64,000 nt of DNA from a virus (IMGVR_UViG_3300028800_000057); one strand, 5' to 3'. Counted from the stretch's first letter, positions 11,088-60,248 are shown. The notes: generated by a model from the letters alone, not told the origin. A program made the numbers and translations.

Positions 11088-11091
11088 CTAA

Positions 11092-11951: not shown

Positions 11952-11999
11952 TCCAGGGTCGTCCAATCGAACTAAGGACACTGGCCTGATTCGCCAGAA

Positions 12000-12870: not shown

Positions 12871-12874
12871 CTAT

Positions 12875-13159: not shown

Positions 13160-13187
13160 CTAAACCTCTTATGGTAGGTTCCAGAGT

Positions 13188-13823: not shown

Positions 13824-13854
13824 CAGGGTATCGGGTTCCTCGTTTTAGTTACAT

Positions 13855-13927
13855 GTCGAGGTTCCCGAGTGGTAAGGGCGCGGTCTGCAAAACCGTAGTT
13901 TCGTCAGTTCGATCCTGACCCTCGACT
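13855..13927 (+). tRNA. tRNA-Cys(GCA)
   Basis: Acceptor GTCGAGG/CCTCGAC perfect, anticodon loop CTGCAAA, T-arm GTCAGTTCGATCCTGAC. Confidence 0.65.
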
Positions 13928-13931
13928 CTAT

Positions 13932-14004
13932 GCGGACATAGCTCAATTGGTAGAGTTTCTGCCTTCCAAGCAGATCGTTGAGGGTTCGAGTCCCTTTGTC
14001 CGCT
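13932..14004 (+). tRNA. tRNA-Gly(TCC)
   Basis: GCTCAATTGGTAGAG D-arm, anticodon arm TCTGC-CTTCCAA-GCAGA, T-arm GAGGGTTCGAGTCCCTT, CCA follows. Confidence 0.75.
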
Positions 14005-14008
14005 CCAG

Positions 14009-14034
14009 GGAGAATGCTTGCTCGGAAGTACATT
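14009..14034 (+). promoter_or_regulatory. conserved post-tRNA motif, copy F
   Basis: GGAGAATGCTTGCTCGGAAGTACATT after tRNA-Gly(TCC), upstream of ORF 14158. Confidence 0.4.
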
Positions 14035-14157
14035 TAGTTCAAACCTGAAATCCCCCCGCTACTTATGGGGGATCGCCTTATGGAGGCATCTTTCGGCTTC
14101 TCTTGTCTCCCTCAGTCTAATGAACTTATCCAGTGGGTAAGTGTGTTTGATGACCTA

Positions 14158-14982
14158 ATGACCCTTCGTGTTGCGGCTCGGTACGTTCGAGCACGAGCGA
14201 AGATATCACTTAGTACTGGGGAGGATGACGAGACCCAACGAAAGGGTAAGATCCCTCCCAGGTGGAAAGAGTGGTTGGACCTTACACAAGAAGGGGGTAA
14301 GCGTAAGGTTCCTAACCCAAGTGCAGATCCTCAGTCTCGTGAGAGAAACTCGGAGGTTTCCTTCAGTACAGCTCTAAAGAACCCTAGCTTTTATGGCAAG
14401 GCACTCAAGGAGTACTACAACTGGGTAGGGAAGCAGGACGATAAGGGTGGTACTTCACCAAAGAAGCCAACGCCTTCTGAAGAGTCCACTTCAGATGCTA
14501 AGCCCAAAGAAGAAGACTCAAAACCAAAGTCCAAGGGTGATGATTCGAAAGATACTGCTCCGTCCAATCCTTTAGAGTTGGACGACAAGCGACTAGACGC
14601 TATCATCGAGGAGAATAAAGAGCACTTTGACCAGATCACGAAAGAGATGACTGAGTCGGTTAAGGGGTTTAAGTCTAGTCACATGAAGAAGCGCTACCCC
14701 GGGGATCGGTACCCAAGCCTCTTCAAGAAGGCTTTTGATCGACTCACTCCTCAAGAGCAAGCACTCTGGGCTGGTGGGGATAAGCTAGGCAAGCACTTCC
14801 AAGACTACATGTCTAAGAAGGATGCTGAGGGTCAACGAGTAGGTCGAGGTGCTGTTGCTGGTTGGAGGATTGCAGGTGATTTCACTGAATCTGAATCAGC
14901 TCAGAACTTAATTGGTATGGTTGAAGCTTGGGGCATCAAGGGTTGCCAGCAGTTCAACCTGAACTTGACTAAAGTTACTTGA
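14158..14982 (+). CDS. hypothetical Lys/Asp-rich protein with RVAARY leader
   Basis: The ORF track starts at 14065. The leader consensus points to the internal start MTLRVAARYVRA. Confidence 0.45.
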   Translation: MTLRVAARYVRARAKISLSTGEDDETQRKGKIPPRWKEWLDLTQEGGKRKVPNPSADPQSRERNSEVSFSTALKNPSFYGKALKEYYNWVGKQDDKGGTSPKKPTPSEESTSDAKPKEEDSKPKSKGDDSKDTAPSNPLELDDKRLDAIIEENKEHFDQITKEMTESVKGFKSSHMKKRYPGDRYPSLFKKAFDRLTPQEQALWAGGDKLGKHFQDYMSKKDAEGQRVGRGAVAGWRIAGDFTESESAQNLIGMVEAWGIKGCQQFNLNLTKVT

Positions 14983-15177
14983 CTCCGCTCGTCTCATAGA
15001 TAATCATCCTATCAGATCGGATGTACATGAAGATGAAAGTGGTTCGAGTCTCGGCCACTGAGTTCGAATTGGAAGACGGTAGGGTATTTCCCCACGTCAC
15101 CCCACTCGAACCGGTTCCGACCCCCGAAGAGTTTCAAGTACATTACGACCTTTGGTCAGATCGGTTGAAGCGAAAGG

Positions 15178-15801
15178 ATGTCCCATGGACTTGTCTCGCT
15201 CAAAAAAGCGGCTGAAATCCTTGGTTGCGGAACCTCCACACTTCGAACTTGGGATAAGAACAAGAGCCTCGTAGCCGTTCGAACTCCTGGTGGTCAGCGC
15301 CGATACCGCACTGAAGACCTCGACCGCTTCCAGGGAATCATCAAGAAGACCTCCAAGAAGTCGGAGTCCGTGGCAGTCTACGCTCGTGTTTCTAGTCACG
15401 AGCAGAAGGCTAAAGGAGACCTCGACCGCCAGAAGGGAAGGCTTCTAGAGCATTGCGTCAAGCAGAGCTACTCGGTGACCCACGTCATGGAGGAGGTTGG
15501 ATCTGGGATGACGGACACTCGGCCGAAGATGCTACGGCTTCTTGAGCTGGCAACGAGGGGCGAGATTGGGCGAGTGGTTATCGAGCACAAAGATCGGTTA
15601 GCTCGGTTCAATTTCAACATATTCCAGAAGTTCTTCGAGAGTCACGGTGTACAGGTTGAATGGCTGGAAAACGTGCTTCCGAAGTCTTACGAGGCGGAAC
15701 TCGTTGAGGATATGGTCAGCCTTATGTCCAGCTTCTCAGCCAAAGTATATGGGAAACGCTCTGCTGAGAACCGCCGAAAGAAGAAGGCTGAAGCGGCATG
15801 A
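15178..15801 (+). CDS. tnpA: IS607-family TnpA (serine recombinase with N-terminal MerR-like HTH)
   Basis: An N-terminal HTH (AAEILGCGTSTLRTW) followed by a resolvase catalytic core (YARVSSHEQ...DRQ...R). Sits immediately upstream of, and overlapping, a TnpB gene. Confidence 0.7.
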   Translation: MSHGLVSLKKAAEILGCGTSTLRTWDKNKSLVAVRTPGGQRRYRTEDLDRFQGIIKKTSKKSESVAVYARVSSHEQKAKGDLDRQKGRLLEHCVKQSYSVTHVMEEVGSGMTDTRPKMLRLLELATRGEIGRVVIEHKDRLARFNFNIFQKFFESHGVQVEWLENVLPKSYEAELVEDMVSLMSSFSAKVYGKRSAENRRKKKAEAA

Positions 15802-17225
15802 AGAAGTGTAGGTTCTTCATGTTGCACTCCGAGTGCAATCCAGGGAAGGTTAAAGCTATCGAGGCCCTCCATGCTGAGTATGTGCTTTACGTTCGGATAT
15901 GCGTCCAGACGATGCTCTCCGCTCGCCGACTAAGCTTGCCCCGCTCGGAGAAGCAAGAGTTCTTTCCCCGAGCTGAGAACCTAACTTCACAGATTGAGAA
16001 GAACGCCCGTGATCATGCCATCCAGATCGTAAGTACCTGGGCCAAGGGGATCTATGCCAGGAAGCTCAAGACTTTCATCAGGTTATCCTTCAATGAAGGG
16101 ACTTTCGATGAGGACTTTCGGAAGCAACTCTGTACGGTCGGCAAGTATTTGGTTCACGATCCGAGTAAGACCGTGACCCAAGAGGCTATCAATCTGTATT
16201 GGGCTTGGCTCTCTGACCCAGAAGTAGTTGGAAACTTCCCAAGTGTGTCTAGTCGAATCCCAATGAGGATGTCTGAAAACACCTGCTCATTGGAAGATCC
16301 AGAAGAGGCTGTTCACGCTTATCTTTGGCTCAAGATCTCGACCTTAGTTTCTCGTAAGCTTGCCTGGCTCCCGCTGGTTGGAAACCCGTATGTCAAGAAG
16401 TCCTCTGATGTGGGTAAGGGGATTCATGCTAGAAAAGACCGAAAAGGCCGGTGGCGATTCGAAGCTGTTGACACCAAAGAATGGCTGATCTGTGAGGCGG
16501 AGCCAGACCTTCCAATGATCGGAGTAGATGTCGGGCTAAACGTAGTAGCGGCTACTTCGAGCGGACACACGTTTGGGGCAGACTTGAAACCCAAGTTTAA
16601 TCGGCTCTACAACAAGGTCAGGGCGGTTCGAGCGAACCGCCAAAGGCAGGGACTCAAAGAAAACAGCCCTAGACTCGACAGGCTTGAGTCCAAGCTCTCC
16701 GGCTTGACTAAGAGCATCACTGGACGGGTCTCCAATGAGCTTCTTCGAGCTTATCCAGAATCAGTCTTCGTCCTTGAGGACTTGGATCTTCGGGGTTGTC
16801 GTGGTCAAAAACGCTTTTGCTACAGAGCCTTAGCTCACGCTCTTGAGAGCAAAGCTCCGACCGATAAGGTGAATCCCGCTTATTCTAGTCAAACATGCCC
16901 TTCTTGTGGGCATGTCTCCAGGCTCAATCGGTCTGGAACCAGTTTCATCTGCCGCCAATGCGGCAGGATTTCACATGCTGATGTGGTAGGAGGGATCAAT
17001 CTGCTCAGACGTTCTGAGAGCAAACAGATTGGTCTCAATGATCACCCATCGGAAGTGAAGAGAATGCTTGTGAGGCTATACTGGTCTAGGAGGAATCCTA
17101 ACCAGGACTGTCCACAAGACTTCTTGAATAAATACGCGCCATTACCGTATGGCCGGAGGCTTACTACCAAGGGACGTTCTCGAAAGAGAAGCATTGGCAT
17201 AGCTTTTAATCAGGTAGTTGCTTGA
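15798..17225 (+). CDS. tnpB: TnpB (RuvC-like RNA-guided nuclease, IS605/IS607 family)
   Basis: RuvC-I (IGVDVGLN), RuvC-II (VFVLEDLD), zinc finger CPSCGH...CRQCG and RuvC-III (HADVVGGINL). Confidence 0.8.
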   Translation: MKKCRFFMLHSECNPGKVKAIEALHAEYVLYVRICVQTMLSARRLSLPRSEKQEFFPRAENLTSQIEKNARDHAIQIVSTWAKGIYARKLKTFIRLSFNEGTFDEDFRKQLCTVGKYLVHDPSKTVTQEAINLYWAWLSDPEVVGNFPSVSSRIPMRMSENTCSLEDPEEAVHAYLWLKISTLVSRKLAWLPLVGNPYVKKSSDVGKGIHARKDRKGRWRFEAVDTKEWLICEAEPDLPMIGVDVGLNVVAATSSGHTFGADLKPKFNRLYNKVRAVRANRQRQGLKENSPRLDRLESKLSGLTKSITGRVSNELLRAYPESVFVLEDLDLRGCRGQKRFCYRALAHALESKAPTDKVNPAYSSQTCPSCGHVSRLNRSGTSFICRQCGRISHADVVGGINLLRRSESKQIGLNDHPSEVKRMLVRLYWSRRNPNQDCPQDFLNKYAPLPYGRRLTTKGRSRKRSIGIAFNQVVA

Positions 17226-17379
17226 ACCCACGTAAGTTTAAGCAACTTCTTGAGTACGGTTGGACTGATCCAGGCTCAGGATTCTCAGGACAACCCTAAT
17301 ATTGTCAAGATTAAACTGGATGATATCAGTAGAATCATGTTCATCCCAGCTAACAAGTCTAGTAGTTTAGCTGATAGGG

Positions 17380-17964
17380 TTGCGACTCGTTGGTGTATTC
17401 AGCAGGGTGGCAATCGGTAAGGGTCCAATTAATCTCCCCGTAACTCCTGATATGCCCCTAAGTGAGCTTCAAGAGAAGTTGAAGGCTCATGTACGAGGCC
17501 CCGGCGCAGTCTGTCCAGTATGCCGTCAACTCGTGAGGATGGTTGAAAAAGAGCTGAGTGCCCCGATGGCGTACGTCCTCATTCTGATGTACCGTCACTT
17601 CCAGACGGCCTCTGACTGGCTCGACATGAACCAGTACATCTCAAACATGGTGGCGATTGGGTCCGAGGTGAAGGGTGGGGAGTGGTCGAAGATGAAGTAC
17701 TGGCAACTCATCGTCGAGCGCCCGCCGGAGAAGAAGTCAATCGTGAACCCCAAGCCTCCAGTCAAGACTCAGGGGATGTACAAGATGACAGAGCTTGGCG
17801 CAAGGTTCGTTCTCGGCAAGATCAAGATCCCTCGAAGTGTCTGGCTCTACAATGGCAAGGTCATCGAGGTACATAAGAAGTCCGTAAGCATTCAAGAATG
17901 CTTAGGAAAAGACTACAACTACGAAGCACTCATGGCTGGGAACCTAGGAAGCTTCGCAGTCTGA
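17380..17964 (+). CDS. hypothetical protein
   Basis: 194-aa ORF downstream of tnpB. Confidence 0.45.
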   Translation: MRLVGVFSRVAIGKGPINLPVTPDMPLSELQEKLKAHVRGPGAVCPVCRQLVRMVEKELSAPMAYVLILMYRHFQTASDWLDMNQYISNMVAIGSEVKGGEWSKMKYWQLIVERPPEKKSIVNPKPPVKTQGMYKMTELGARFVLGKIKIPRSVWLYNGKVIEVHKKSVSIQECLGKDYNYEALMAGNLGSFAV

Positions 17965-17969
17965 TTTAT

Positions 17970-18042
17970 GCCCCCATAGCTCAGTGGATAGAGCAAAGGT
18001 TTTCTAAACCTGAGGTCGAAAGTTCAAGTCTTTCTGGGGGTA
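17970..18042 (+). tRNA. tRNA-Arg(TCT)
   Basis: GCTCAGTGGATAGAGC D-arm, anticodon loop TTTCTAA, T-arm GAAAGTTCAAGTCTTTC, CCA follows. Confidence 0.7.
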
Positions 18043-18047
18043 CCAAT

Positions 18048-18120
18048 GTCCGCGCAGCTCGATTGGAGGAGCAACAGCTTGCGAAGCTGGAGGTTGGAGG
18101 TTCGACCCCTCTCGCGGACG
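18048..18120 (+). tRNA. tRNA-Arg(GCG)
   Basis: Acceptor GTCCGCG/CGCGGAC perfect, anticodon loop TTGCGAA, T-arm GGAGGTTCGACCCCTCT, CCA follows. Confidence 0.65.
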
Positions 18121-18125
18121 CCAAT

Positions 18126-18199
18126 GATCTCGTAGCATAACGGACTTGTGCAGCGGCCTCCGAAGCCGACGACTGTGGGTTCGAATCCCACCGGGATCA
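18126..18199 (+). tRNA. tRNA-Arg(CCG)
   Basis: Anticodon loop CTCCGAA, T-arm GTGGGTTCGAATCCCAC, CCA follows. The D-arm is weak. Confidence 0.5.
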
Positions 18200-18221
18200 C
18201 CAACTACGGTGTATTAGGGCC

Positions 18222-18557
18222 ATGGCTGTAATCACAATCAATGGCAAACGCATAGAGGTTGATGGCTCAGGTACTGTCTCAATCAACAATGGGGTTATCA
18301 AGGTTGATGGGGTGACCGTCGAGAATGGCCTTCATGGAGTCGTCGAAGTCAAGTGGGAAGGTCCTCTTGCTAACCTTCGATCTGATGCTTCAGTCACTTG
18401 TGGGGACGTCACTGGGAACGTGAGTGCGGGAGGTAGTGTCCATGCTGGTAACATTCAATCTACAGTGACCGCCGGTGGGAGTGTCCACGCTGATGACATC
18501 ATCGGGAACGTTAATGCTGGAGGAAGTGTCAACTGTAGAAGTCAAAGATCTCGTTAG
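18222..18557 (+). CDS. small repeat protein (three copies of G-N-V-x-A-G-G-S-V-H-A)
   Basis: 111-aa ORF with internal tandem repeats. Confidence 0.4.
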   Translation: MAVITINGKRIEVDGSGTVSINNGVIKVDGVTVENGLHGVVEVKWEGPLANLRSDASVTCGDVTGNVSAGGSVHAGNIQSTVTAGGSVHADDIIGNVNAGGSVNCRSQRSR

Positions 18558-18561
18558 TTAC

Positions 18562-18635
18562 ACCCCCATAGCTCAATTGGATAGAGCAGAGGTTTTCGAA
18601 GCCTAAGGTTGGAGATTCGAGTTCTCCTGGGGGTA
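18562..18635 (+). tRNA. tRNA-Arg(TCG)
   Basis: GCTCAATTGGATAGAGC D-arm, anticodon loop TTTCGAA, T-arm GGAGATTCGAGTTCTCC, CCA follows. Confidence 0.6.
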
Positions 18636-18640
18636 CCAAT

Positions 18641-18713
18641 GCTGATGTAGCTCAATCGGTAGAGCGGCGCTTTCATAAGGCGAAGGTTGCGGGTTCGAGT
18701 CCCGCTTTCAGCA
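18641..18713 (+). tRNA. tRNA-Met(CAT) (or Ile2)
   Basis: GCTCAATCGGTAGAGC D-arm, anticodon loop TTCATAA, T-arm GCGGGTTCGAGTCCCGC, CCA follows. Confidence 0.65.
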
Positions 18714-18743
18714 CCAAAGTTCTCACTGGGTGTAGTACCTAGG

Positions 18744-18923
18744 ATGGTGAGAATACTCCGAAGGTCGAAGGACGAAGTAGTGGTCATGGACAACGAAGAC
18801 ATAGTTGGTTCTGTAGTCAACCAAGTTGGATGTGTTCAGGTTGCAACTATTGACGGTTCTTTCGTGGTTGTCGACGATGTAGTCAGAGCGGCCAAGCTCC
18901 TCGATGAGCCTTGGCCTGAGTAA
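18744..18923 (+). CDS. small hypothetical protein
   Basis: The ORF track 18687..18923 begins inside a tRNA. The internal ATG at 18744 lies beyond the tRNA. Confidence 0.3.
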   Translation: MVRILRRSKDEVVVMDNEDIVGSVVNQVGCVQVATIDGSFVVVDDVVRAAKLLDEPWPE

Positions 18924-18930
18924 CTTTCAT

Positions 18931-19005
18931 GCCCCTGTAGCTCAATTGGTAGAGCGCTGGTCCTACAAACCAGAGGTTTTGTACGTTCAAGTCGTATCGG
19001 GGGTA
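18931..19005 (+). tRNA. tRNA-Val(TAC) with C32-C33 anticodon loop
   Basis: GCTCAATTGGTAGAGC D-arm, anticodon arm CTGGT-CCTACAA-ACCAG, T-loop TTCAAGT. Confidence 0.5.
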
Positions 19006-19010
19006 CTAAC

Positions 19011-19095
19011 GCACGAGTGGCGGAACTAGGCAGACGCTCCGGACTTAGAATCCGGCGGGGTAATTCCCATGGAGGTTCAATTCCTCTCTCGTGCA
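19011..19095 (+). tRNA. tRNA-Leu(TAG), type II
   Basis: Acceptor GCACGAG/CTCGTGC perfect, anticodon arm CCGGA-CTTAGAA-TCCGG, long variable arm, T-arm GGAGGTTCAATTCCTCT, CCA follows. Confidence 0.75.
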
Positions 19096-19354
19096 CCAAT
19101 CTCCAATGAAAGAAGGTTTTATGCTCAAGTTCAAGATACGATGGCTTAGTTCAAGACTCGTTATGGGTCGTGGCCTAAGCTGGGTGGTATAGCTGAATCC
19201 AATAGCTCAGTTCTGAGAGGCTCAGCTGCATTCATCGCCTCATTCAGGCAAATGCTAGCGATCTCTGCTCGGAATTGAGCCGGTTTTCTTGGGTTCACCA
19301 AAACTAAGGGCATAGAACTCTCACCTTCAATACGCCGTTTTGTCTTAGATCTTC

Positions 19355-25747: not shown

Positions 25748-26094
25748 GGGAATGATCGGTTTCGACGTTGGGTGAAAGGATCTCTTGCGTGTAAGCGGCT
25801 CTCGAACCGCTCATCAATCGAGAAACGTTAATTGCGAACGACAATGCAATCGCCGCTGCGGCCTAAGAAACCGCGCGACCAGTTCCTAGAGAGATAGTCT
25901 TGGTATCGAAGGAGCTGCCAATCACAAGGCTGGCTTACCTCACGGGCTCCCGGTGAGGTGGCGAGATAAACAGGGTGATAGGTCGTAGGCCGAATCCACG
26001 AACTCAGTCGAGGGGGATACTTCGACTACGCACGTGAATGAGAGAGATACCAGACAACTGACGGACCGGGGTTCGATTCCCCGCATTTCCACCA
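25748..26094 (+). ncRNA. ssrA: tmRNA (ssrA), tag peptide ANDNAIAAAA
   Basis: 5' GGGAATGATCGGTTTCGACG and 3' ACGGACCGGGGTTCGATTCCCCGCATTTCC-A-CCA. The acceptor halves are complementary. Internal reading frame GCG AAC GAC AAT GCA ATC GCC GCT GCG GCC TAA at 25834-25866. Confidence 0.8.
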
Positions 26095-47926: not shown

Positions 47927-49152
47927 TTATGGCTGCCTCTAAGAAAAATGCTCAACCCCCTATGGATGAAGTCGACGCCAAGCGAAGAGAGATGATGGCG
48001 CAGACACGAGCCTTCATTAAGAAGGCGACGGACCAAGACCCAATTGGTACCCGGAATGGTTCCTGGCCTCACTTGCAATCAGGAGCTATCGCGGTTGATA
48101 GCTTGATTGGTGGGACTCCAATCCTTGACGGGTCAGGGCTGGTATGTCCTGGGTACCCCCGAGGACGTATCACAGAGATCTACGGAGCTGAGTCAAGTGG
48201 TAAGACTACCCTTGCTTTAGCTGCTGCAGTTCAGGCTCAGCGAGCCAAGCAAGGGGTTCTGTACTTCGACTATGAAAACGCTATCCACCACGGATACGCG
48301 CGGTCGATTGGAGTCAACTTCGATGAGTCCTACCTGAGCTTGTTCGCACCAACCACCTTGGAAGAGGGCATGAAAATGCTCTACATCGCCATCAAACAAG
48401 GGGTTGGACTGGTTGTCATTGACTCGGTAGCCGCGATGGTACCCAAGGCTGAGTTGGAGAAGAAGCTCGATGACGCGGCTGCCATTGGAGTTCTAGCTCG
48501 GTCGATGAGTTCGGTCCTTCCGAAGATGACTCAGTGGCTCAAGGGCAGCCCGACAGTGGTTATCTTCATCAACCAGGTTCGAGCTAACATATCAAAAACT
48601 AGCTATGGTCCTGGTGACGACAACACGGCTGGTGGTAAAGCCGTGAAGTTCTATGCAAGCCTACGCTTGAAGCTGACTCGAATCAAGTCAGAGTTCATCG
48701 AAAAGGTGGACCCAATCACCCTTCAAAAGAAGAAGATCCCCTTCGGTAACGTGGTTCAGGTCAAGGCCGTCAAGAACAAGATGGATGGGAAGCAAGGACA
48801 TGCCTGCGAGATCTTCATTCGGTATGGTACTGGAGTTGATGAGTACCTGTCCTTGGTTGAGGCGGCGGTACCTCGCAAGATCATACTCAAAAGAGCGTCA
48901 GCCTACGACTTCGAGGGTGAGTCCTTCAAGGGTCGAGACAAGCTACGTAGTTATCTAGTGAGTAACCCAAAGGCTTTCGAGAAGCTTCGGGATAGTGTGA
49001 TGCAGAGCCTTCTTTCTGAGGCCCCAACCGCGGTTACCGAGGTTGATGACGATGACATCGTATCTGACATGAGGAAAGAACTCGATGACGATACCCTGTT
49101 TGACGAGGCAGTTGATACCACTCCTGAAGAGGTAGTTTCCGAGGGGTCATGA
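47923..49152 (+). CDS. RecA-family recombinase (UvsX/Sak4-like)
   Basis: Walker A GAESSGKTTLAL, Walker B LVVIDSVAAM, and a RecA-like L-loop region. Confidence 0.8.
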   Translation: MIMAASKKNAQPPMDEVDAKRREMMAQTRAFIKKATDQDPIGTRNGSWPHLQSGAIAVDSLIGGTPILDGSGLVCPGYPRGRITEIYGAESSGKTTLALAAAVQAQRAKQGVLYFDYENAIHHGYARSIGVNFDESYLSLFAPTTLEEGMKMLYIAIKQGVGLVVIDSVAAMVPKAELEKKLDDAAAIGVLARSMSSVLPKMTQWLKGSPTVVIFINQVRANISKTSYGPGDDNTAGGKAVKFYASLRLKLTRIKSEFIEKVDPITLQKKKIPFGNVVQVKAVKNKMDGKQGHACEIFIRYGTGVDEYLSLVEAAVPRKIILKRASAYDFEGESFKGRDKLRSYLVSNPKAFEKLRDSVMQSLLSEAPTAVTEVDDDDIVSDMRKELDDDTLFDEAVDTTPEEVVSEGS

Positions 49153-50495
49153 TCAATATTGAGGTCAAAGGCTTTCAGTCTGTCGAGGACCTCAAGATCT
49201 CCCTCGACGGGTTCACTGCCATCGTTGGCCGAAGCAACATTGGTAAGAGTGCATTGGTGAGAGCGCTCAAGTGCGCTCTCACCAATGCAGAGGGGGTGAA
49301 CTTCGTCAGGCACGGGCTTGATTGTGCTCGCGTTCTTCGAGGTGTTAAGACCTGCAAGTGTGCCTCCTCGGTACACATTGTGATGGATGGGTTCGACTTA
49401 TTTTGGGAGAAAGGGGATGCAGTAAATCGATACTTCTTCAACGGAGAGAAGTACGACAAGCCTGGTAAGGGTATCCCTGAGTTCCTCCTCAAGGACGGTC
49501 TTGCACCGGTCAAGGTCGGCGATGCCTCCAAGAGTATTCAGATTGCTGACCAGTTCTACCCTCTTTTCCTTCTGGACCAATCTGGTGGGGTAGTAGCCGA
49601 GACTATATCCGATGTTTCTAGGTTGGATCGGGTAAGCAAGGCTACCAAGCTGGTCGAGAAAGACCGTCGGGACCTGCAGGGGGTCAAGAAGATTCGAGAG
49701 GCGGATGCTGATAAGCTCAAGATTCGTCTGTGTGCCTATGAGGGGCTGGATAACGCCCTTCAGAAGGTGGTTGACGTAGAGGGTCAGTACAAGGTCATCG
49801 AGGCCAAGGAAGTCAAGCTAGGGGTCATCAAAGAGTTCCTTTCCAAGCTCAAGGACCTAGCGCTCCGGATCAGGTCCTTGGCGAGTGTTGAGTCTGTCCA
49901 GGTACCTGCTATCGACGCTATTGACCAACTAGGTCAGAAGGTTGACCAGCTCACCAAGTTTTCTGAGGACTACGACCGCCGAGAGGCGATTGTGTCTGGC
50001 TTGAGTTGGGTTGAGGACCTGGAGGGCCGTGTTCCGAATATAGCTTCAGTCTCCACCATGAACTCTAAGGTGGTTCAGCTCACCAAGTTTTCTACTGAGC
50101 ACGCGCGCCGGCAATCTCGGGTTGATGGGCTCACATGGGTCGAATCTTTGGTAGTACCAGAGATCTCCGGTCTAGATGCATTGTCTTCCAAGTTCTCACT
50201 CCTGGATTCTTGGATTGGCAAGCTCAGAGCGCTCAAGGCAAAGTTCGAGACCGTAAGTAAGGCGGTCAAGGCTCCTGTTCCAGATATAGAACTAATTCAA
50301 CAGTTGCAGAACAAGCTAAGTACTCTGAATCAATACCACGCCAAGCTTCAGTCCCTGCAGGGGCTGGTTGGGACCCTCGAAAGCGAATTGACTACGGTTG
50401 AAGTCGAGGAGGCTGGTCTTGAGCAAGAGGTCAGCGCGCTCGGTGTCTGTCCAACCTGTGTGCGACCAATGACCCTGGACCACTCACATGCCTAA
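49149..50495 (+). CDS. Rad50/SbcC-like ATPase, N-terminal half (Walker A + coiled coil + CPTC zinc hook)
   Basis: N-terminal IVGRSNIGKSALV, a long coiled coil with an internal tandem repeat, and a C-terminal CPTCVRPMT. No signature or Walker B motifs. Confidence 0.55.
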   Translation: MINIEVKGFQSVEDLKISLDGFTAIVGRSNIGKSALVRALKCALTNAEGVNFVRHGLDCARVLRGVKTCKCASSVHIVMDGFDLFWEKGDAVNRYFFNGEKYDKPGKGIPEFLLKDGLAPVKVGDASKSIQIADQFYPLFLLDQSGGVVAETISDVSRLDRVSKATKLVEKDRRDLQGVKKIREADADKLKIRLCAYEGLDNALQKVVDVEGQYKVIEAKEVKLGVIKEFLSKLKDLALRIRSLASVESVQVPAIDAIDQLGQKVDQLTKFSEDYDRREAIVSGLSWVEDLEGRVPNIASVSTMNSKVVQLTKFSTEHARRQSRVDGLTWVESLVVPEISGLDALSSKFSLLDSWIGKLRALKAKFETVSKAVKAPVPDIELIQQLQNKLSTLNQYHAKLQSLQGLVGTLESELTTVEVEEAGLEQEVSALGVCPTCVRPMTLDHSHA

Positions 50496-51462
50496 ACTAT
50501 CATTCCTTTTCAGGACTGACACTCACTTGTCCGACAATAGTCCAGCCTCTTGGAAGGCGGACTACACGGAAGAAATCTGGGATAGCTTAACTCAGGTAGG
50601 GGAGCTAGCCAAGAACTTTGAGGTTAATGCAGTGCTCGATGGGGGCGACTACTTCCACAACAAGGCCCCTACCCGTAACTCGCATTACTTGGTTCAGAAG
50701 ACAGCCTTGATTCATGCTGGTTACCCATGTCCTATTCTGATGGTGCCAGGAAACCACGATATCCGCTACAACAACCTGGAGACCCTTGATAGGCAGCCTC
50801 TAGGCACCCTCTATGCTAGTAAGGTCTTCGAGCAACTTGACGAGAGAGTTTTTGAGGATGGGGATCTTCGAGTGCGTGTGGTTGGCGTCCCCTACAACCC
50901 CAACCTGACTCTCAATGAGTTGATGAGTATTCAAAAGAAGAAGGGTGATACTCACTTAATAGCAGTTGTTCACACTTTAGCTTCATTGAGTCCGCCGGCT
51001 TCTGTTGAGGATTTCTGGAACGAACCCGTGTTCTCCTATGAATCACTTGTGAGTCGTAATGGCCCTGATGTTTTCATGTTTGGGCATTGGCATAAGGATC
51101 AAGGTGTTGAGGTTGTAGGTGGTAAGTACTTTGTCAATCAAGGTGCACTATCTCGCGGGTCACTGGTGAGGGAGAACCTTGAACGTACTCCGAAGGTTGC
51201 ACTCGTTGAGTTTGATGGTAGTGGGTTGCGAGTCGAAACCTACAAGCTAGCGGTTGCTCCCGCTGAGGATGTCTTCGACTTGGAGAAGAAGGCGGTCCAA
51301 GAACGTGAGCGCCAAGACATTGACCAGTTCGTTCAGCGTTTGGTGTCTGAGGGAGAAGTTGACCCAGATCAGACTATCGAGGACAACATCAAGTCTCTCG
51401 ACTTCGCTGATGACGTTCGATCTGAGGCACTCAAGTATCTAGAAATGGCTGAAGTAGGATGA
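50488..51462 (+). CDS. Mre11/SbcD-like nuclease (calcineurin-like phosphoesterase)
   Basis: Phosphoesterase motifs DTHLSD, GGDYFHN, VPGNHD and GHWH. Confidence 0.75.
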   Translation: MPKLSFLFRTDTHLSDNSPASWKADYTEEIWDSLTQVGELAKNFEVNAVLDGGDYFHNKAPTRNSHYLVQKTALIHAGYPCPILMVPGNHDIRYNNLETLDRQPLGTLYASKVFEQLDERVFEDGDLRVRVVGVPYNPNLTLNELMSIQKKKGDTHLIAVVHTLASLSPPASVEDFWNEPVFSYESLVSRNGPDVFMFGHWHKDQGVEVVGGKYFVNQGALSRGSLVRENLERTPKVALVEFDGSGLRVETYKLAVAPAEDVFDLEKKAVQERERQDIDQFVQRLVSEGEVDPDQTIEDNIKSLDFADDVRSEALKYLEMAEVG

Positions 51463-52424
51463 GCGTCAACTACATCTCATACTCTGGGTACAAGGAATAC
51501 GAGAAGTGTCCGTATGCCTATTGGTTCAAGTATGTGGTCAAGTACAAGCTCAAGGTACAGGAAAACAGTGTAAATTCACTGTACGGTACCACCATTGGTA
51601 CCGTTTTCGAGGCCTTCTACAAGCAAAAGATTTGGAAGGACAAGGACCTTCTGCGGCGCTTGTTGGAGATCGCCCCCGTGCACCTTGATGCAGCCATCAA
51701 CGAGTCTATGGAGAAGGGGCGAGACGTAGATTGGTTTGATGAGAAAGCCAACTATCATAGTAAGGAGGAGATCATTGCAGATCTCGAAGCGACGATCCCT
51801 ATTGGAGTTCAGACCATCCGAGAGAACCGTTTCGTCGGTCCTCGCATGGATACTGAGTTCAAACTCGACTTCAAGTTCGGCAAGTACATCATTGGGGGCC
51901 GCGCCGACTTCATCATTCAACGGGTGAAGCCATTCAATGACCTTGTGATTCTTGATGGCAAGGGCTCCAAGCACCGTGAGACCTATGTCGATGGTCACAG
52001 GTTAGCCAAAGGACAGAAGATCGAAGGGACCCAATTGAAGTGGTACGCCCTGCTATACAAGGCTAAGTTCAGCAGTATACCTGGTGGTATCGGCTACATT
52101 TTCTGGAGATTCGAGGGCGATAAGGCTATTGAGTGGGTAGAATTCTCCGAACAAGACTTGTATCAACTGAGGGTTGAGGTTCTGTCTGTACTAACTCGCA
52201 TTGACGTTGCAACTGATCGTTTAGACAAGGCTGGAAAAGGGTCTCAAGCATATAATGACCTAAGACAGGAGCTTTTCCCATCACAACCCAGTTATGGTTG
52301 TAACTTGTGTGCATTTGCATCGGTGTGTGAGGACGGTAAGAAACAAGTACAGAAATCTCGCCCACGCCCCAGACTAAACCTGCCAGAAGGTGTAACAGAA
52401 CTTGCCCTCGGTATTGACGACTGA
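51459..52424 (+). CDS. PD-(D/E)XK nuclease, Cas4/RecB-like with C-terminal Fe-S cysteines
   Basis: N-terminal YKEYEKCPYAYWFKY, central D...E.K, and C-terminal CNLCAFASVCEDG. Confidence 0.55.
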   Translation: MSVNYISYSGYKEYEKCPYAYWFKYVVKYKLKVQENSVNSLYGTTIGTVFEAFYKQKIWKDKDLLRRLLEIAPVHLDAAINESMEKGRDVDWFDEKANYHSKEEIIADLEATIPIGVQTIRENRFVGPRMDTEFKLDFKFGKYIIGGRADFIIQRVKPFNDLVILDGKGSKHRETYVDGHRLAKGQKIEGTQLKWYALLYKAKFSSIPGGIGYIFWRFEGDKAIEWVEFSEQDLYQLRVEVLSVLTRIDVATDRLDKAGKGSQAYNDLRQELFPSQPSYGCNLCAFASVCEDGKKQVQKSRPRPRLNLPEGVTELALGIDD

Positions 52425-52731
52425 AGCTTCATGGAGAGGTGGTTTGATGTCTCAGCTTTTGACACCAGATAAACTACAAGAGAAGGTGGCCGGTATCCTT
52501 CAGCGCCACACTAGAATACTACGTCGCAAGTCAGAATTATCTGGGGAGTTAAAGTCGAAGAAGGAAGAACTTGCCTCCCTAGTACGAGAGATTGATGCGG
52601 CTGGGTATAACCCCAAGACTCTTGTTGAGGAGCGGAACAAGACCCAAAAGGATCTTGAGGATATGCTCGAAGATTACGACAGACAACTGACTGAGGTAGA
52701 AGGTACTTTCGCAGAGTATGACAGGAAATGA
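52402..52731 (+). CDS. small coiled-coil protein
   Basis: 109-aa charged ORF. Confidence 0.35.
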   Translation: MPSVLTTEASWRGGLMSQLLTPDKLQEKVAGILQRHTRILRRKSELSGELKSKKEELASLVREIDAAGYNPKTLVEERNKTQKDLEDMLEDYDRQLTEVEGTFAEYDRK

Positions 52732-52739
52732 GGAGCTAA

Positions 52740-54002
52740 ATGAAGATTCAAATCAATTTCAACTTGGCCGATATCATTGAGGCCCTTGACATAGTGTCGG
52801 CTGTAGTTCCGCACCAGACTACTAACGAAGCCGCAGGGTACCTTTTCGTTGTGAGCGGCAAGGAGTGCTACTTGTACTCCAGTGGAGATAATTGTGTTGC
52901 TAGGGCCAAGTTCGACTTGATTGATTCGAGTGGTGACGGGGCTTTTGTATTCCCAGCAGTTAATCTGAGTAACTCATTGCGTCCACTAGCCAAGGAGGAA
53001 GAGACTTGTATCATCGAAGCCTCTTCAGATGAGGATGGTCGCCACCTGGTCAAGTATATGACAAGCCCGGATGGGGCTGAGGCTGAGTTCGGTAGCTACG
53101 CCCCTGATAGCATCTCCCGGTACGATGATGACCTAGCGGCTGCTACTGAGACCTATGAGTACAACCCGTCGATCTTGAAGGAGGCAATCAGCCTTGCTCG
53201 GGTTTTCATGGCCGATAAGATTGACCAGAGTGTGTCCGAAGCGTTCCGAGGTGTCGAGGTTATCGACAAGACTCGGCTTGAGAAAGGGGACGGCTACCTG
53301 TACGCTACTGATCGGTACATAGCCTACTACTTCAAGAGCGACCACTTTGTTGGTAAGAGATTGGCTATTCATGCTACGCACATACCAGCATTCTTGAGTT
53401 TCCTTAGTAAGTGCGACAGTGGTAGTGTGGTTGCCATCAAGATCAATGGTAACCTTACCTTTGCAGTCAGTTCCAAAGGGGACGTCTTTGGTTGGAGCAA
53501 GATTGGGGACCTGCACGACAAGTTCATCCACCACAACCTCAAGATGGACTCATTGGTGGTTCGGGTTAACAAGGCCCGTTTCCTACATGCTTTGGAGTCA
53601 TCCAAAGGAGCCTTGAAGGAAAAGGATGACAGCATCGTATTCAACTACGACGCGAAGACCAGCAAGATTTGGTTCAATGTCACCACCTCGAAGTCCAAGT
53701 CAATCAAGATTGAGGCTACTCCTGTTGTCGATACTGAAGAGGGTACTACGGCTTCCACGGCTGACTCTTTCTCCGCCTCTGTGAGTATTAGGCAGCTCAC
53801 CGAGCTAATTCAGAATATGAAGGGCTATGATGTCACCTTTCGCGGGTACATCGGGAAGCCCAAGGCGGGGACGAAAGCGCTCAATCTGTTCAGGACCATT
53901 GACGAATTCTTCCTGAGTTCTGCAGATGGCAAGGTCACTACATCCCAAGAGGACTCTATTCCGTGTCGAATAACGAGGTTCATGTCCTCTCTGACGAAGT
54001 AG
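52740..54002 (+). CDS. putative sliding clamp (DnaN-like)
   Basis: N-terminal MKIQINFNLADIIEALDIVSAVVP resembles beta-clamp N-termini. 420 aa. It sits beside clamp-loader genes. Weak. Confidence 0.35.
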   Translation: MKIQINFNLADIIEALDIVSAVVPHQTTNEAAGYLFVVSGKECYLYSSGDNCVARAKFDLIDSSGDGAFVFPAVNLSNSLRPLAKEEETCIIEASSDEDGRHLVKYMTSPDGAEAEFGSYAPDSISRYDDDLAAATETYEYNPSILKEAISLARVFMADKIDQSVSEAFRGVEVIDKTRLEKGDGYLYATDRYIAYYFKSDHFVGKRLAIHATHIPAFLSFLSKCDSGSVVAIKINGNLTFAVSSKGDVFGWSKIGDLHDKFIHHNLKMDSLVVRVNKARFLHALESSKGALKEKDDSIVFNYDAKTSKIWFNVTTSKSKSIKIEATPVVDTEEGTTASTADSFSASVSIRQLTELIQNMKGYDVTFRGYIGKPKAGTKALNLFRTIDEFFLSSADGKVTTSQEDSIPCRITRFMSSLTK

Positions 54003-54670
54003 GGAGGAAGCAGCGAGTAAATACCCTCCGGCTTCAGGCGACGAGGGTCAAGACTCTGAGAGACCAGTTGAACTTGGAGCTAGGTGAGAAGGAGAGGGAG
54101 CTAGAGACCCTCTCCTCTCGCTTAGCTATCCTTGCAAAGGTCTCAGAGTTATACCTGATTCTATTGGATCGTATGGTGAAGGGCCAGGTCAAGACCATTG
54201 ACGAGGTAATCACCCACGGATTTCAGACTATATTCTACGACCAGGATCTTCGGTTCGAGACCGAGCTATCCACGAAGTACAATCGGGTTAGTGCAGAGTT
54301 CTTCATTCGTGACGGTGACCCAGACAATGGTGGGACTCGAGGCAGTCCGCTGGAGTCCTATGGTGGAGGCCCTGCAACTATCGCAAGCCTAGTTCTGAGG
54401 ATACTGACAATCCTTCGATTGAAGCGCCGAAAGTTCCTTCTGCTTGATGAGACTCTCTCCGCGGTGTCAGACCTCTACGTGGAGAACACCAGCTTATTCC
54501 TCAAGGGCCTAGCTGAGACTATGGGTCTGGACATATTTTTGGTTACTCAACATCAATCCTATGTCGATTACGCTCCTACATCTTACCATGCTGATATCAA
54601 AATCGATGGGGGTAGGAAGCACTTGACACTACGGCGCGCTAAGGGTTCCAAACATGAAAACCAAGTCTGA
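53963..54670 (+). CDS. Rad50/SbcC-like ATPase, C-terminal half (coiled coil + signature-like + Walker B + H-loop)
   Basis: SYGGGPATIASLVL (signature-like), KFLLLDETLSAVSD (Walker B / D-loop) and FLVTQHQ (H-loop). Confidence 0.55.
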   Translation: MSNNEVHVLSDEVGRKQRVNTLRLQATRVKTLRDQLNLELGEKERELETLSSRLAILAKVSELYLILLDRMVKGQVKTIDEVITHGFQTIFYDQDLRFETELSTKYNRVSAEFFIRDGDPDNGGTRGSPLESYGGGPATIASLVLRILTILRLKRRKFLLLDETLSAVSDLYVENTSLFLKGLAETMGLDIFLVTQHQSYVDYAPTSYHADIKIDGGRKHLTLRRAKGSKHENQV

Positions 54671-56968: not shown

Positions 56969-58405
56969 GTGTGGGATACCACGTATAGGCCTTTGACCTT
57001 TGCAGATGTGCTAGGTCAAGAGGGAACCGTTCAACTACTCAAAGCTCGTCTCAGGAATGGGACCGCGCTGGACACTAGTTACATCTTCAGTGGTGGTAGT
57101 GGTCAGGGAAAGACGACTCTGGCTCGCATCTACGCTAGGGCGATGCTCTGTGAGAACGTAGGTAAGAACAACCCTGAGCCATGCAATCAATGCGAGAGTT
57201 GCAGGTCTATCCTGAACGACTCCTCAATGGCTTTTTCTGAGCAAGACGCAGCTAGCCAGGGTGGAATTGATCAGATTCGAAGGATAGTAGATAGCCTCCC
57301 CTTCTCGGTAGTGGGGGCTTCAAAGAGAATCTACCTCTTTGACGAGTGCCATCGGATGTCTAAGGATGCTCAGGACGTCCTACTCAAGCCGCTGGAAGAG
57401 CGCAAGATGATTGGGATGTTTTGCACCACGGAACCTGAAAAGGTTCGTGGTGCTATCCGATCTCGATGTGAAGAGTATGGGATTAGAAAGGTTACGCGCG
57501 AAGACATCCTAGTTCGGATGAGGCGTATCCTAGAAGCAGAGAAGGTAGAGTTCGATGACGATGGTATCCTAACGGTTATTGACTACGCCGGTGGTCATGT
57601 CCGTGACGTGGTGAGTCGTCTTGAGATGATCGCTCAGGTTGGGCCGGTCACTCTGGACAACGTTCGAGAGCACCTCAATCTGTCTGTGATCTCCACTTAT
57701 TACCACATACTACTCAACTTAACCTCTGACACCAAGAAGGCGCTCCAGCTTGTTGACCAAGCTTGTGAGAGAATGACCGCTGAGGAGGTAGTATCGGGTC
57801 TCTCGGAGGCCGCTATGAACTCTTTCCGGTTAGCAAACGGGATGGGAGCGGACTTCTCTTTCACAGATAAGTTACTGGCTGTAGAGGTCTATAAGCTCTA
57901 CGGTGTTGAGCTGATCAAGATCGCAAGCCACTTCTTGAGGTCCAGGTACGTAACTCAAGTTGGACTGATTTGTGATCTAACTGCACTGGCGTTCTCTGGG
58001 GTGAAGGGATCTTTCATCTCAGCTCAGCCTGTGTCGCAAGGTTCAGTCCTACAAGTATCTGCCCCCGTGGCTACTCAAGCTCCGGTGAGTACACTAGCTC
58101 CAACACCAAAGCCCGCTGAGACGTCGAGCCCACCACCAGTGGTAGAGGCTCAGCAGTCACCTGAGGAGCCCCCAAGTAGCAAGCAAATGCCTAGTGGCGA
58201 TATGCCTATCGGTAATTTGGGCTCTGATGATCCTCGGGCAATGACCATCTACGACACACAGGTCATCCCAGAAGCAAACCCTGGTAAGAGAAAGAAACTG
58301 AATCTAACGCCTAACGAAACCAGTACAAGCGATAGGGACTTAATTAGTCACGAAGCTTGGCGCCGAGGGTTCGCTGAACTCTGGAGTAGAGGGGGAAATG
58401 CCTGA
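56969..58405 (+). CDS. dnaX: DnaX-like clamp-loader ATPase (tau/gamma)
   Basis: GGSGQGKTTLARIYA, Zn module CNQCESCRS, LFDECHRM and SRCEEY (SRC), and a Pro/Ser-rich C-terminal linker. Confidence 0.75.
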   Translation: MWDTTYRPLTFADVLGQEGTVQLLKARLRNGTALDTSYIFSGGSGQGKTTLARIYARAMLCENVGKNNPEPCNQCESCRSILNDSSMAFSEQDAASQGGIDQIRRIVDSLPFSVVGASKRIYLFDECHRMSKDAQDVLLKPLEERKMIGMFCTTEPEKVRGAIRSRCEEYGIRKVTREDILVRMRRILEAEKVEFDDDGILTVIDYAGGHVRDVVSRLEMIAQVGPVTLDNVREHLNLSVISTYYHILLNLTSDTKKALQLVDQACERMTAEEVVSGLSEAAMNSFRLANGMGADFSFTDKLLAVEVYKLYGVELIKIASHFLRSRYVTQVGLICDLTALAFSGVKGSFISAQPVSQGSVLQVSAPVATQAPVSTLAPTPKPAETSSPPPVVEAQQSPEEPPSSKQMPSGDMPIGNLGSDDPRAMTIYDTQVIPEANPGKRKKLNLTPNETSTSDRDLISHEAWRRGFAELWSRGGNA

Positions 58406-60248
58406 GTGGGTTGTCCTAGAGTTAAGCCCTCAAGGTGAGGATGAGGACCCAGAGGTCCTCAGAAAAGCTGTTGGAAAATCTATCAAGAGCTTGAAGGATG
58501 TATTTGTACCAGCCTCAACCATCACACGCGGGCATTCTAGGTCAGTTTACAAGTTAATTGAGAACTACATCTTCGTTAGACGTACACAACCTGACCCCGT
58601 ATACTTCAAGTTGGAGGGTTCCAAGTATATTACCTCAATCCTGACAGTGTATGATCATCGGATTCGTAGGATATCGGCGGTGCCTGATAGCTCCATCGAA
58701 CAGATGCGCCTTCAGCTTCACATTGAGACTGAACAAGGGATTGAGGTAGGCGACGAAGTCTTGGTCATGAGTGGGGCCTACAGCGGGATTGTTGGCAAGG
58801 TAATTGAGAACATCCCTGAGAATAACTCCGTTCAAGTATTCGTTAAGCTCAGGTCGAAGCAGGCGCTGATCACACTACCTCGGAGCTTTTTGAAGTATGT
58901 CTCTAATACCGAAGACCAGCAGTACAACTCCCCGTTCCTAACTAAGTTGTTCAGGATTAAGCAGTGGATTGATCGTGCCAAGGCTCCGAATAAGTATTTG
59001 GTTAGTTCCGAAAAACCCTTACAAGCTAAGTATGACAGGTACCTAAGAATCACCTCGTGGCTTGATACTTTTAGAAGAGCCAGGAAGTTACTAGTAGACC
59101 CAGTGGCACCTGAGATGTTCACGGGATCCGATAGCGAGCCTCTGCTGAAAAAGTTTCATCAAGTTCAGCAAATGAACTCATTCATATCAAGGTCAGGGTT
59201 TTTCTTCTACTTACCTCTGATTCAATTGCCAGAGGTCTCACAACTAGCCAACTCTTCAGCTGCACTAGACCTACTCGACAGCTTCATAGCTAGATACTCA
59301 CAGATTCACAGTGATTGTGACCAACTTGAGAGGTCACTACCAGATTGGAACCCAGATATGGCTAACAACATCGTGTTCGACGGGCATAATCTAGCTTATA
59401 GGGTTGTCAATGCTCTAAGGAACATCCCTGATCAGCTAACCGATAGTGAGGGCAGATCAACTGCACTAGTATTTGGGTTCTTGCGTAGCTTAGCTGCACT
59501 CAAGAAGCGTTTTGAGAGAGCTAATATGTATGTTGTATGGGATGGCTCTAAGCAGCGTAGGGTTGACATGTATCCAGACTACAAGGCAGGCAGGCCAGAG
59601 CATAGTCAGGGTACACACGATGAGATGTCACGACTTCAGTCTATGCTTCCAATGTTTGGCATCTCACAAGTCCATAATCCAGACGAGGAAACAGACGATA
59701 TTATCGCTTGTTTACTGAAGAACAAGCTAAAAGGTAAACACAACATAATCATCTCTACAGACCGTGACTTCCTACAGTTGGTTACATACACTGACTTACT
59801 TTTAGTACCAAAGCAAGGAAGTCGACCTGAGACCCTTTACGACCCCGATAGAGTTGTGTCAGAGTATGGGGTCCCGCCCCGGTTGATGGTTCACCTCAGA
59901 GCACTCTCAGGTGACACATCGGACAATCTGCCCGGGGTCCCAAGAGTACCTCGTAAGATCCTGGCGTCCCTTCTAACAACGCACGGATCGATCGATGGGG
60001 TCTACGCTTCAAGCTTAGCCGGGGTCACCAAGACTCAGTACGACAAGATCCGAGGCTTTGAGAAACAAGCCCGATTAAATGTGGAACTTATGGCTCTTAG
60101 AACGGACCTAGACTACCAGATTACGGAGGCAGCTCCGAACTTTGATAGCGCTTTCGACGCTCTAAAGCAGTGTTCCATTCAACCTGAGATCTTGATTTCA
60201 ACCTTCTTCCAGACCCCTGTTGGGGCTGGGTTCACCAAGAATAGCTGA
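58398..60248 (+). CDS. fusion protein: NusG-like NGN/KOW N-terminus + FEN / 5'-3' exonuclease C-terminus
   Basis: N-terminal WVVLELS...GDEVLVMSGAYSGIVGKVIE...VQVFVKL (KOW). C-terminal VVWDGSKQRRVDMYPDYKAGR, ISTDRDFLQLV and LSGDTSDNLPGVPRV (5' nuclease motifs). Confidence 0.65.
   Translation: MPEWVVLELSPQGEDEDPEVLRKAVGKSIKSLKDVFVPASTITRGHSRSVYKLIENYIFVRRTQPDPVYFKLEGSKYITSILTVYDHRIRRISAVPDSSIEQMRLQLHIETEQGIEVGDEVLVMSGAYSGIVGKVIENIPENNSVQVFVKLRSKQALITLPRSFLKYVSNTEDQQYNSPFLTKLFRIKQWIDRAKAPNKYLVSSEKPLQAKYDRYLRITSWLDTFRRARKLLVDPVAPEMFTGSDSEPLLKKFHQVQQMNSFISRSGFFFYLPLIQLPEVSQLANSSAALDLLDSFIARYSQIHSDCDQLERSLPDWNPDMANNIVFDGHNLAYRVVNALRNIPDQLTDSEGRSTALVFGFLRSLAALKKRFERANMYVVWDGSKQRRVDMYPDYKAGRPEHSQGTHDEMSRLQSMLPMFGISQVHNPDEETDDIIACLLKNKLKGKHNIIISTDRDFLQLVTYTDLLLVPKQGSRPETLYDPDRVVSEYGVPPRLMVHLRALSGDTSDNLPGVPRVPRKILASLLTTHGSIDGVYASSLAGVTKTQYDKIRGFEKQARLNVELMALRTDLDYQITEAAPNFDSAFDALKQCSIQPEILISTFFQTPVGAGFTKNS

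Follow-up and report, generated by a model that had tools for sequence, protein, structure and literature searches.

Two open reading frames (ORFs) on the plus strand of the viral sequence IMGVR_UViG_3300028800_000057, at positions 49149..50495 and 53963..54670, were investigated as candidate halves of a single Rad50/SbcC-type ATPase. The window, i.e. the whole stretch of DNA that was analysed, comprises 64,000 nt, and nearly all of its genes lie on the plus strand. The two genes, referred to here as the N-half and the C-half, are 3.5 kb apart with four genes in between. The initial annotation had described the first ORF as the N-terminal ATP-binding cassette (ABC) lobe and coiled coil of Rad50/SbcC, ending in what looked like a zinc-hook motif, and the second as the missing C-terminal lobe. 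The following features were located in the two genes (aa, amino acids):

49149..50495, plus strand: N-half of the putative split Rad50/SbcC-like ATPase, 448 aa, with N-terminal ABC lobe, segmented helical arm and terminal CxxC
49227..49250, plus strand: Walker A (P-loop) GRSNIGKS, aa 27-34; G27, N30, G32, K33 and S34 invariant in 40 homologues
49308..49361, plus strand: His/Cys cluster RH..C..(9)..CKC, aa 54-71 (H55, C59, C69 and C71), invariant columns in the huge-phage N-half family
49536..49556, plus strand: candidate Q-loop IQIADQF, aa 130-136; Q131 and Q135 invariant; AlphaFold confidence low in both models
49584..50441, plus strand: arm of six heptad-patterned helices at about aa 146-195, 200-244, 256-283, 299-327, 342-374 and 380-431, with Pro-containing loops between them (secondary structure from the AlphaFold 2 (AF2) models)
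49902..50276, plus strand: three tandem repeat units of 41-43 aa in the arm, VP...QLxKF...RR...V..L.WVE.L; copy number varies among relatives
50448..50459, plus strand: CPTC, aa 434-437, a CxxC 11 residues before the C-terminus; C434 and C437 invariant; candidate zinc-hook motif
53963..54670, plus strand: C-half of the putative split ATPase, 235 aa, GTG start; long N-terminal helix and C-terminal ABC lobe
53999..54232, plus strand: long helix of the C-half, aa 13-90, predicted to form a base coiled coil with N-half helix 157-195 through its first ~60 residues
54359..54379, plus strand: signature motif region YGGGPAT, aa 133-139; G134-G136 invariant, P137 nearly so
54434..54469, plus strand: Walker B FLLLDE (aa 158-163) and D-loop TLSAVS (aa 164-169); L161, D162 and E163 invariant
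54542..54556, plus strand: H-loop region VTQHQ, aa 194-198; family consensus VTHK

As annotated, the N-half was found to contain the N-terminal ABC lobe and the arm only, with the P-loop in place and neither a signature motif nor a Walker B in the protein. It ends just after the invariant CxxC, a motif of the kind from which the Rad50 zinc hook is formed; 11 residues follow. C434 and C437 were the only invariant residues in the arm, and this CxxC may bind zinc. The second cluster of potential ligands, H55/C59/C69/C71 in the N-lobe, was absent from the homologues of phages phBC6A51 and 0305phi8-36 and may represent a clade-specific structural zinc site. The GTG start of the C-half is preceded by AAGAGGA, and no P-loop was present in this protein. 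The annotated succession of helix, YGGGPAT, LLLDE and D-loop was recovered in the C-half, but the proposed H-loop VTQHQ carries a Gln at the position of the consensus His. Since Walker A and Q-loop occur only in the N-half, and signature, Walker B, D-loop and H-loop only in the C-half, neither half alone has a complete nucleotide-binding site.

The arm of the N-half comprises ~285 residues. Every arm helix showed a hydrophobic periodicity of 3.5 residues with a clear heptad a/d seam, indicating that the arm is built to pack against something. The number of repeats sets the length classes of the N-half of ~407, 448 and 489 aa (P0103, P0111-P0115, P0120, P0122-P0140). In 36 distinct N/C pairs the distance between Walker A and CxxC was quantised at ~342, 362-369, 401-412 and 446-450, indicating gain or loss of a 41-residue unit. 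The distance between the C-half start and GGG was constant in these pairs (127-136), with r = 0.10 against the arm length of the N-half. By analogy with Rad50 structures, ~55-60 residues before GGG belong to the C lobe; subtraction leaves a helix of ~60-75 residues, which fits the first arm helix of the N-half. As this helix is fixed in length and is set against a variable arm of ~285 residues, most of the descending arm is absent. The ~230 arm residues beyond the first helix make up another five helices, each 28-52 residues long, with Pro-containing loops between them, and no other gene in the block changed in length along with the arm repeats among the related loci. The proposal that the protein is split exactly at the hook apex held in so far as the cut follows the CxxC, but the C-half is without a matching descending arm and the arrangement is no simple bisection.

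Homologues of the N-half numbered more than 400 (400-506 aa) and those of the C-half 101 (mostly 200-237 aa, with a few shorter fragments), and both were often found on the same contigs of 100-620 kb. With homologue families this large and of matching length, the two ORFs go well beyond what chance would produce. An exhaustive profile search with the C-half yielded 3,686 cluster representatives at 50% identity, 1,936 of them at E<=1e-10; nearly all of the best 150 clusters were stand-alone proteins of ~200-235 aa, the remainder being fragments or slightly longer. A scan of IMG/VR gave 62 related loci, in which C-half identity went as low as 31%. Wherever the flanks reached far enough, hidden Markov model (HMM) and jackhmmer searches revealed the same order on one strand, i.e. 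RecA, N-half, Mre11, PD-(D/E)XK nuclease, the small coiled-coil ORF where detected, clamp, C-half and two further conserved genes. No fusion of the halves in one ORF was observed among the 62 loci or in Bacillus phages. The Mre11-like gene came after the N-half in every related locus, directly or overlapping in most and after an insert of ~2.7 kb in seven that belong to a divergent subgroup (L058-L061, L063-L065); the halves were also separate in the loci that carried such inserts or intein-sized insertions in Mre11. The CxxC, mostly CPTC, was located 4-22 residues before the N-half end in 50 distinct loci, the start of the C-half was conserved as M-x-x-D-x-x-H-A, and many invariant columns in both halves made purifying selection evident. 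The split is ancient, conserved and clade-wide. By their complementary motifs, their co-occurrence and synteny throughout the clade and the fit of the two halves in a model, the always co-occurring pair was shown to represent complementary halves of an SMC/Rad50-class head alongside an Mre11-like nuclease.

Few cultured phages have the stand-alone C-half; it was found in phBC6A51/PHBA67-T, vB_BboS-125, 0305phi8-36 and Microbacterium phage Magritte. The gene row of the Bacillus prophage phBC6A51 consists of BC1852 ("Exonuclease SbcC", 518 aa), two small ORFs, BC1855 ("Chromosome segregation ATPases", 211 aa), a small ORF and BC1857 ("SbcD"), the parts being annotated as unrelated proteins. This prophage has the three components of the window as well, and its N-half likewise ends in ...GVCP.C..PM..DHSH. 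Arm repeats in segments (in BC1852 comparable units of 45-47 residues, VERL.VP...) and a small coiled-coil ORF lying between the halves are further shared features. The C-terminus of BC1852 ends GGVCPLCESPMSFDHSH, and the N-half end GVCPLCESPMSFDHSH of the window is shared by BC1852. Unlike in the window, SbcD follows the C-half, and neither clamp nor Cas4-like genes lie between the halves.

In the jumbo phage 0305phi8-36, gp8 (L004 4978-7287) matched the NCBIfam Mre11 model at aa 29-241 and the Rad50 N-lobe from aa 341, and showed the end ...KCPTC.... It is a CxxC-ending member of the same N-half family (tblastn 23.5% identity). Downstream come gp7, a coiled coil of 92 aa, then gp6 and, as the third gene, the stand-alone C-half gp5 ("ATPase", 236 aa; L004 8304-9014); gp7 lies between the two halves. 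The Mre11 domain precedes the N-half within one protein in this phage, in contrast to the window with its separate Mre11 gene. The passages of Yoshida, Claverie and Ogata (2011) on 0305phi8-36 describe only a fused Mre11/Rad50 homologue, without separate genes, and state that one P-loop NTPase segment 'was not observed' in gp8; these passages draw no link to gp5 (PMC3175470). As a member of the stand-alone C-half family, gp5 (annotated as ATPase or chromosome segregation ATPase) probably supplies the C-terminal ATPase lobe missing from gp8. In Magritte, a C-half-like gp2 ('exonuclease', L068 284-934) was found ~40 kb from an N-half-like gp155 (hypothetical, L069 3992-5044), across the ends of the linear record.

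Profile searches supported the assignment of the two ORFs, with matches to Rad50/SbcC and to SMC heads. For the N-half, Pfam AAA_15/AAA_23 matched aa 3-50 only, phrog_77 (SbcC-like) matched the arm, and phrog_16465 ("exonuclease") matched through the last position of its 491-position profile. The C-half as a single sequence gave no match in Pfam, but was matched by phrog_15167 ("ATPase", 211 positions) at 3e-16; PHROGs thus already holds the two halves as separate families. The NCBIfam archaeal Rad50 model NF002244 was collinear with N-half aa 152-438 over model positions 178-459 of 895, ending just past the hook region, and residues 5-509 of BC1852 aligned to positions 3-459 of 895 of the archaeal Rad50 models. 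The C-halves of the Bacillus phages mapped to the last ~90 positions of Rad50 (799-893 of 895), and RecN was matched about equally well. A C-half profile built from 40 sequences matched SMC head C-lobes in the PDB at E ~1e-3 with GGG, Walker B and H-loop aligned, and 25 of the 40 members individually matched Pfam SMC_N. The CxxC region of the N-half gave a weak, non-significant alignment with the Rad50 hook constructs 6zff and 1l8d (E 0.2-0.46). Single-sequence PDB searches of both halves were uninformative, and the top PDB profile match of the N-half, the leucine-rich-repeat protein 4u08, was rejected as a repeat/composition artefact. Overall the profile scores were low, and they place the halves in the SMC/Rad50/RecN class and not in one specific family.

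The N-half and C-half of the window were also fused in silico and modelled with AF2 from unpaired homologue alignments, a second model being obtained from a cleaner alignment. The second model reached a predicted template modelling score of 0.52 and contained a new strand at residues 22-27. Its base coiled coil was confident, with predicted local distance difference test (pLDDT) values of 83-94 for N-half residues 157-195 and of ~80-95 for the C-half helix (461-538 in fused numbering). The fused model represented a canonical complete nucleotide-binding head. In structural comparisons it scored highest against the SMC head of G. stearothermophilus (score 22.8; 285/332, 3.2 A), followed by Rad50 of P. 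furiosus (21.7; 318/359), human RAD50 (21.7; 367/487), Rad50 of T. maritima (21.4; 307/357) and M. jannaschii (20.0; 285/359) and the E. coli SbcC head (19.6; 301/364, 3.6 A), while OLD, GajA and AriA scored 13-15 and ABC transporter domains ~12-13. The expectation that the lobes would form one head with an antiparallel base coil was upheld in the second model. According to the model the two halves are structurally complementary, and it speaks to complementarity, not to binding. Such complementarity is consistent with the routine deposition of solved Rad50/SMC heads as separate N and C segment chains (1f2t A/B, 3qkr A/B, 1xew X/Y, 5h66 A/B).

Most likely, one Rad50/SbcC-type (SMC-class) ABC ATPase is built here from separate polypeptides, with each of the two ORFs encoding one half. 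The N-half would provide the P-loop lobe, the first arm helix, the long segmented arm and the terminal CxxC, and the C-half a helix of 60-75 residues running antiparallel to the first arm helix as well as the lobe that completes the nucleotide-binding head. The halves would join 1:1 by completing the sheet of the head and by forming the base coiled coil, and two heterodimers would engage around ATP like any Rad50/SMC head, with a presumed ATPase activity. T4 gp46/47 and SbcCD carry out end and hairpin processing for recombination-dependent replication, and the heterodimers would form a complex of this kind with the Mre11/SbcD-like nuclease as their putative partner.

Several observations weigh against this interpretation. 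The long intramolecular antiparallel coiled coil with matched arms that defines Rad50 is, on the predicted arm lengths, missing. The Q-loop region (aa 119-157) was of low confidence in both models, and the first fused model, derived from the noisier alignment, left the lobes undocked. The docking seen in the second model comes from a covalent in-silico fusion with unpaired alignments and is not a multimer prediction. The Gln in place of the consensus H-loop His, with a His one residue further on, was also found in a few close relatives of the window C-half. The window itself is 64 kb of a probably much larger genome, and a full-length Rad50 could sit elsewhere in it; within the window, a six-frame HMM scan revealed no second copy of either half, and no other SbcC candidate was seen.

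The fold of the fused model does not tell Rad50 from SMC. The pair could also form one ABC head of an SMC/RecN-like, DNA-bridging or condensing ATPase that acts independently of its Mre11-like neighbour, adjacency then reflecting a shared replication-recombination module. This is unlikely. SMC proper and MukB have a hinge, whereas only helices were found between the lobes here, with no hinge-like globular domain and no Pfam SMC_hinge match in either protein; the invariant CxxC at the end of the arm is instead the solution used by Rad50/SbcC. No kleisin-like gene was recognised in the gene block. Unlike the present pair, RecN is made of one chain with a short, symmetric coiled coil and has neither a CxxC nor a partner nuclease. 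An independent role is further opposed by the Mre11-like gene, which is the next one of the conserved order after the N-half in every locus and is covalently fused to the N-half in 0305phi8-36, and by the collinearity of phrog_77 SbcC and the Rad50 NCBIfam models with the N-half arm. Iyer et al. (2021) found SbcC-SbcD to be practically universal in jumbo phages (PMC7824862), and the split pair is the only SbcC candidate of the window.

Even less probable is a functional separation of the two ORFs, with the N-half as a stand-alone P-loop coiled-coil protein (OLD/Gabija-like or a degenerate SbcC remnant, for example) and the C-half as an accessory of the clamp or replisome or as the partner of some other protein. 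The intervening four genes could be taken to point in this direction, as could the distance between the two genes in Magritte and the best single-sequence PDB match of the N-half, an OLD-family nuclease, which was confined to the P-loop region (E 0.018). OLD, GajA of Gabija and AriA of PARIS combine an ABC ATPase with a TOPRIM nuclease, fused or as a partner, in a defence context, and Pfam detected neither a TOPRIM nor any other effector domain in the N-half protein. Neither protein has a full nucleotide-binding site alone, the fused model is a canonical complete head, and wherever a related locus extends far enough both halves are present, as they are in two independent Bacillus-phage lineages. 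An artefact or decayed gene (assembly error, frameshifted pseudogene or recent insertion), for which only the unusual arrangement itself speaks, is effectively refuted by the comparative data, since independent metagenomes yielded 50 distinct loci, at 31-96% identity, with these very boundaries. The genes lying in between are intact and conserved, their order does not change, and purifying selection is evident on both halves.

For the arms beyond the base coil of the proposed split ATPase, several arrangements were considered. The preferred guess, held with low confidence, is an in-register pairing of two N-halves, the tips of which would be closed by one zinc on two CxxC motifs; tentatively, this would give a four-polypeptide ring of different topology in which the intramolecular coil has been abandoned and the C-half shares only the base coil. 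Under such pairing the repeat number may drift uncompensated, with the arm length changing by 41-residue repeats. A simple hairpin formed by fold-back of the N-half would place the CxxC partway down the arm and is unlikely, because each change by a single 41-residue unit would put the register out by half a unit. Possible alternatives for the arm are such a fold-back or the binding of the 94-aa coiled-coil protein with a GYNPKTL turn that is encoded between the halves; this protein might also decorate an in-register arm. A "zinc staple", in which His residues in the tail of the N-half and His7 of the C-half would re-join the cut around the CxxC, was dropped, since the His residues did not covary and neither was invariant.

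The genes between the halves were those named by the initial annotation (Mre11/SbcD, a Cas4-like nuclease, a small coiled-coil ORF and a clamp-like gene), and their motifs and profile matches could be located:

50488..51462, plus strand: Mre11/SbcD-like metallophosphoesterase, 324 aa, presumed nuclease partner; Pfam Metallophos 1.8e-12, phrog_100 SbcD-like, NCBIfam Mre11_Sulfo 1.3e-9
51459..52424, plus strand: Cas4-like PD-(D/E)XK nuclease; Pfam PDDEXK_1 4e-20; Cys cluster C17 and C281-x2-C-x5-C290; conserved in the gene block
52447..52731, plus strand: 94-aa coiled-coil protein, helix-turn(GYNPKTL)-helix; 30 homologues of 91-95 aa
52740..54002, plus strand: sliding-clamp-like gene; phrog_947 processivity factor 5.7e-7; 3' end overlaps the C-half start by 40 nt

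The phosphoesterase motifs of the Mre11-like protein were found as DTH, GDYFH, GNHD and GHWH, with motif IV placed tentatively at VVH. In five related loci (L001 at 11226-13322, L012, L013, L029 and L036) the Mre11-like gene encodes 700-800 aa as compared with the usual ~325 aa; with a faint LAGLIDADG match, these enlarged genes look as if an intein or homing endonuclease had inserted into them. The clamp and C-half ORFs, taken from stop to stop, abut or overlap in nearly all related loci (L007-L067), which suggests that the clamp and the C-half of the ATPase are translationally coupled.

The 94-aa ORF occupies the same position in most related loci and was not detected in the most divergent IMG/VR loci (L055-L065). 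Small coiled-coil proteins with a G(Y/V)xP(K/E)(T/D)(L/I) turn were observed between the ATPase halves in three distant phage lineages, represented by the window, gp7 (L004 7301-7579) and BC1854 (L003 5569-5802). The 94-aa protein showed weak profile similarity to gp7 of 0305phi8-36 (hhalign E 1.5e-4, probability 52%) and an unconvincing one to BC1854 (probability 4.5%). With these values, and with the protein missing or undetected in the most distant loci, a universal subunit is weakly supported; the GYNPKTL protein is a possible accessory subunit.

The split ATPase genes lie inside a replication-recombination block. Upstream are, in this order, genes for a class II ribonucleotide reductase, an NAD-dependent ligase, a RecD2-like helicase, two proteins of no assigned function, a RuvC-like resolvase and RecA/UvsX. 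The centre consists of the N-half, the Mre11/SbcD-like phosphoesterase, the Cas4-like PD-(D/E)XK nuclease, the small coiled-coil ORF, the clamp-like gene and the C-half, and is followed by two further genes of no assigned function, a Toprim primase-like gene, a metallopeptidase, a clamp loader and a KOW-5'-3'-exonuclease fusion. The last of these (58398-60248) encodes a 616-aa protein with an N-terminal KOW (NusG-like) motif and a 5'-3' exonuclease/FEN domain, and the same fusion is kept in the relatives L001 and L002. Elsewhere in the window, 37 tRNA genes covering most amino acids and a tmRNA (Rfam RF00023, 111.8 bits; tag ANDNAIAAAA) were detected, all on the plus strand, at 130-19098 and 25748-26094. 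A rich set of this kind is typical of very large phage genomes, and the window has the appearance of a segment from a huge phage genome. No near-identical DNA was found among 50,697 deposited phage records.

The Mre11-Rad50/SbcCD machine as such is known; what differs here is the probable natural two-chain ATPase, cut at the hook motif and with its descending arm lost. Rad50/SbcC and all SMC-like ATPases are thought to rely on a long coiled coil of one chain that is folded back, and arm length and hook are known to matter for function. Compared with Rad50/SbcC of the SbcCD and T4 gp46/gp47 complexes, the protein described here would consist of two polypeptides, cut right after the CxxC, with a descending arm of ~60-75 residues against an ascending arm of ~285 residues made of variable 41-residue units. 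Engineered two-chain heads (1F2T, 3QKR, 1XEW, 5H66) are laboratory truncations of single-gene proteins, whereas here the two-chain state is natural and one chain keeps a long arm and the hook motif. The architecture had been called unusual, and no description of a two-gene Rad50/SbcC was found in the full-text literature searched, which left most subscription journals outside, so that a prior description is possible; it is, however, not unique to the window but occurs throughout a clade and, unrecognised, in a few cultured Bacillus phages, the databases listing its parts under names that do not connect them.

On this interpretation, thousands of huge-phage proteins, of ~220 aa and named "chromosome segregation ATPase" or "hypothetical" or of ~400-500 aa and named "exonuclease" or "AAA_15", would be read as the two subunits of SbcC. 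The C-half family would account for the "missing" ATPase segment of the Mre11-Rad50 fusion of 0305phi8-36, and the cultured Bacillus phages phBC6A51, vB_BboS-125 and 0305phi8-36 make the split pair accessible to laboratory tests. In this large natural family the ascending arm and the CxxC are kept under selection although the returning arm is nearly gone, which would offer a test of the roles of arm and hook, and the family may show an alternative way to build a ring.

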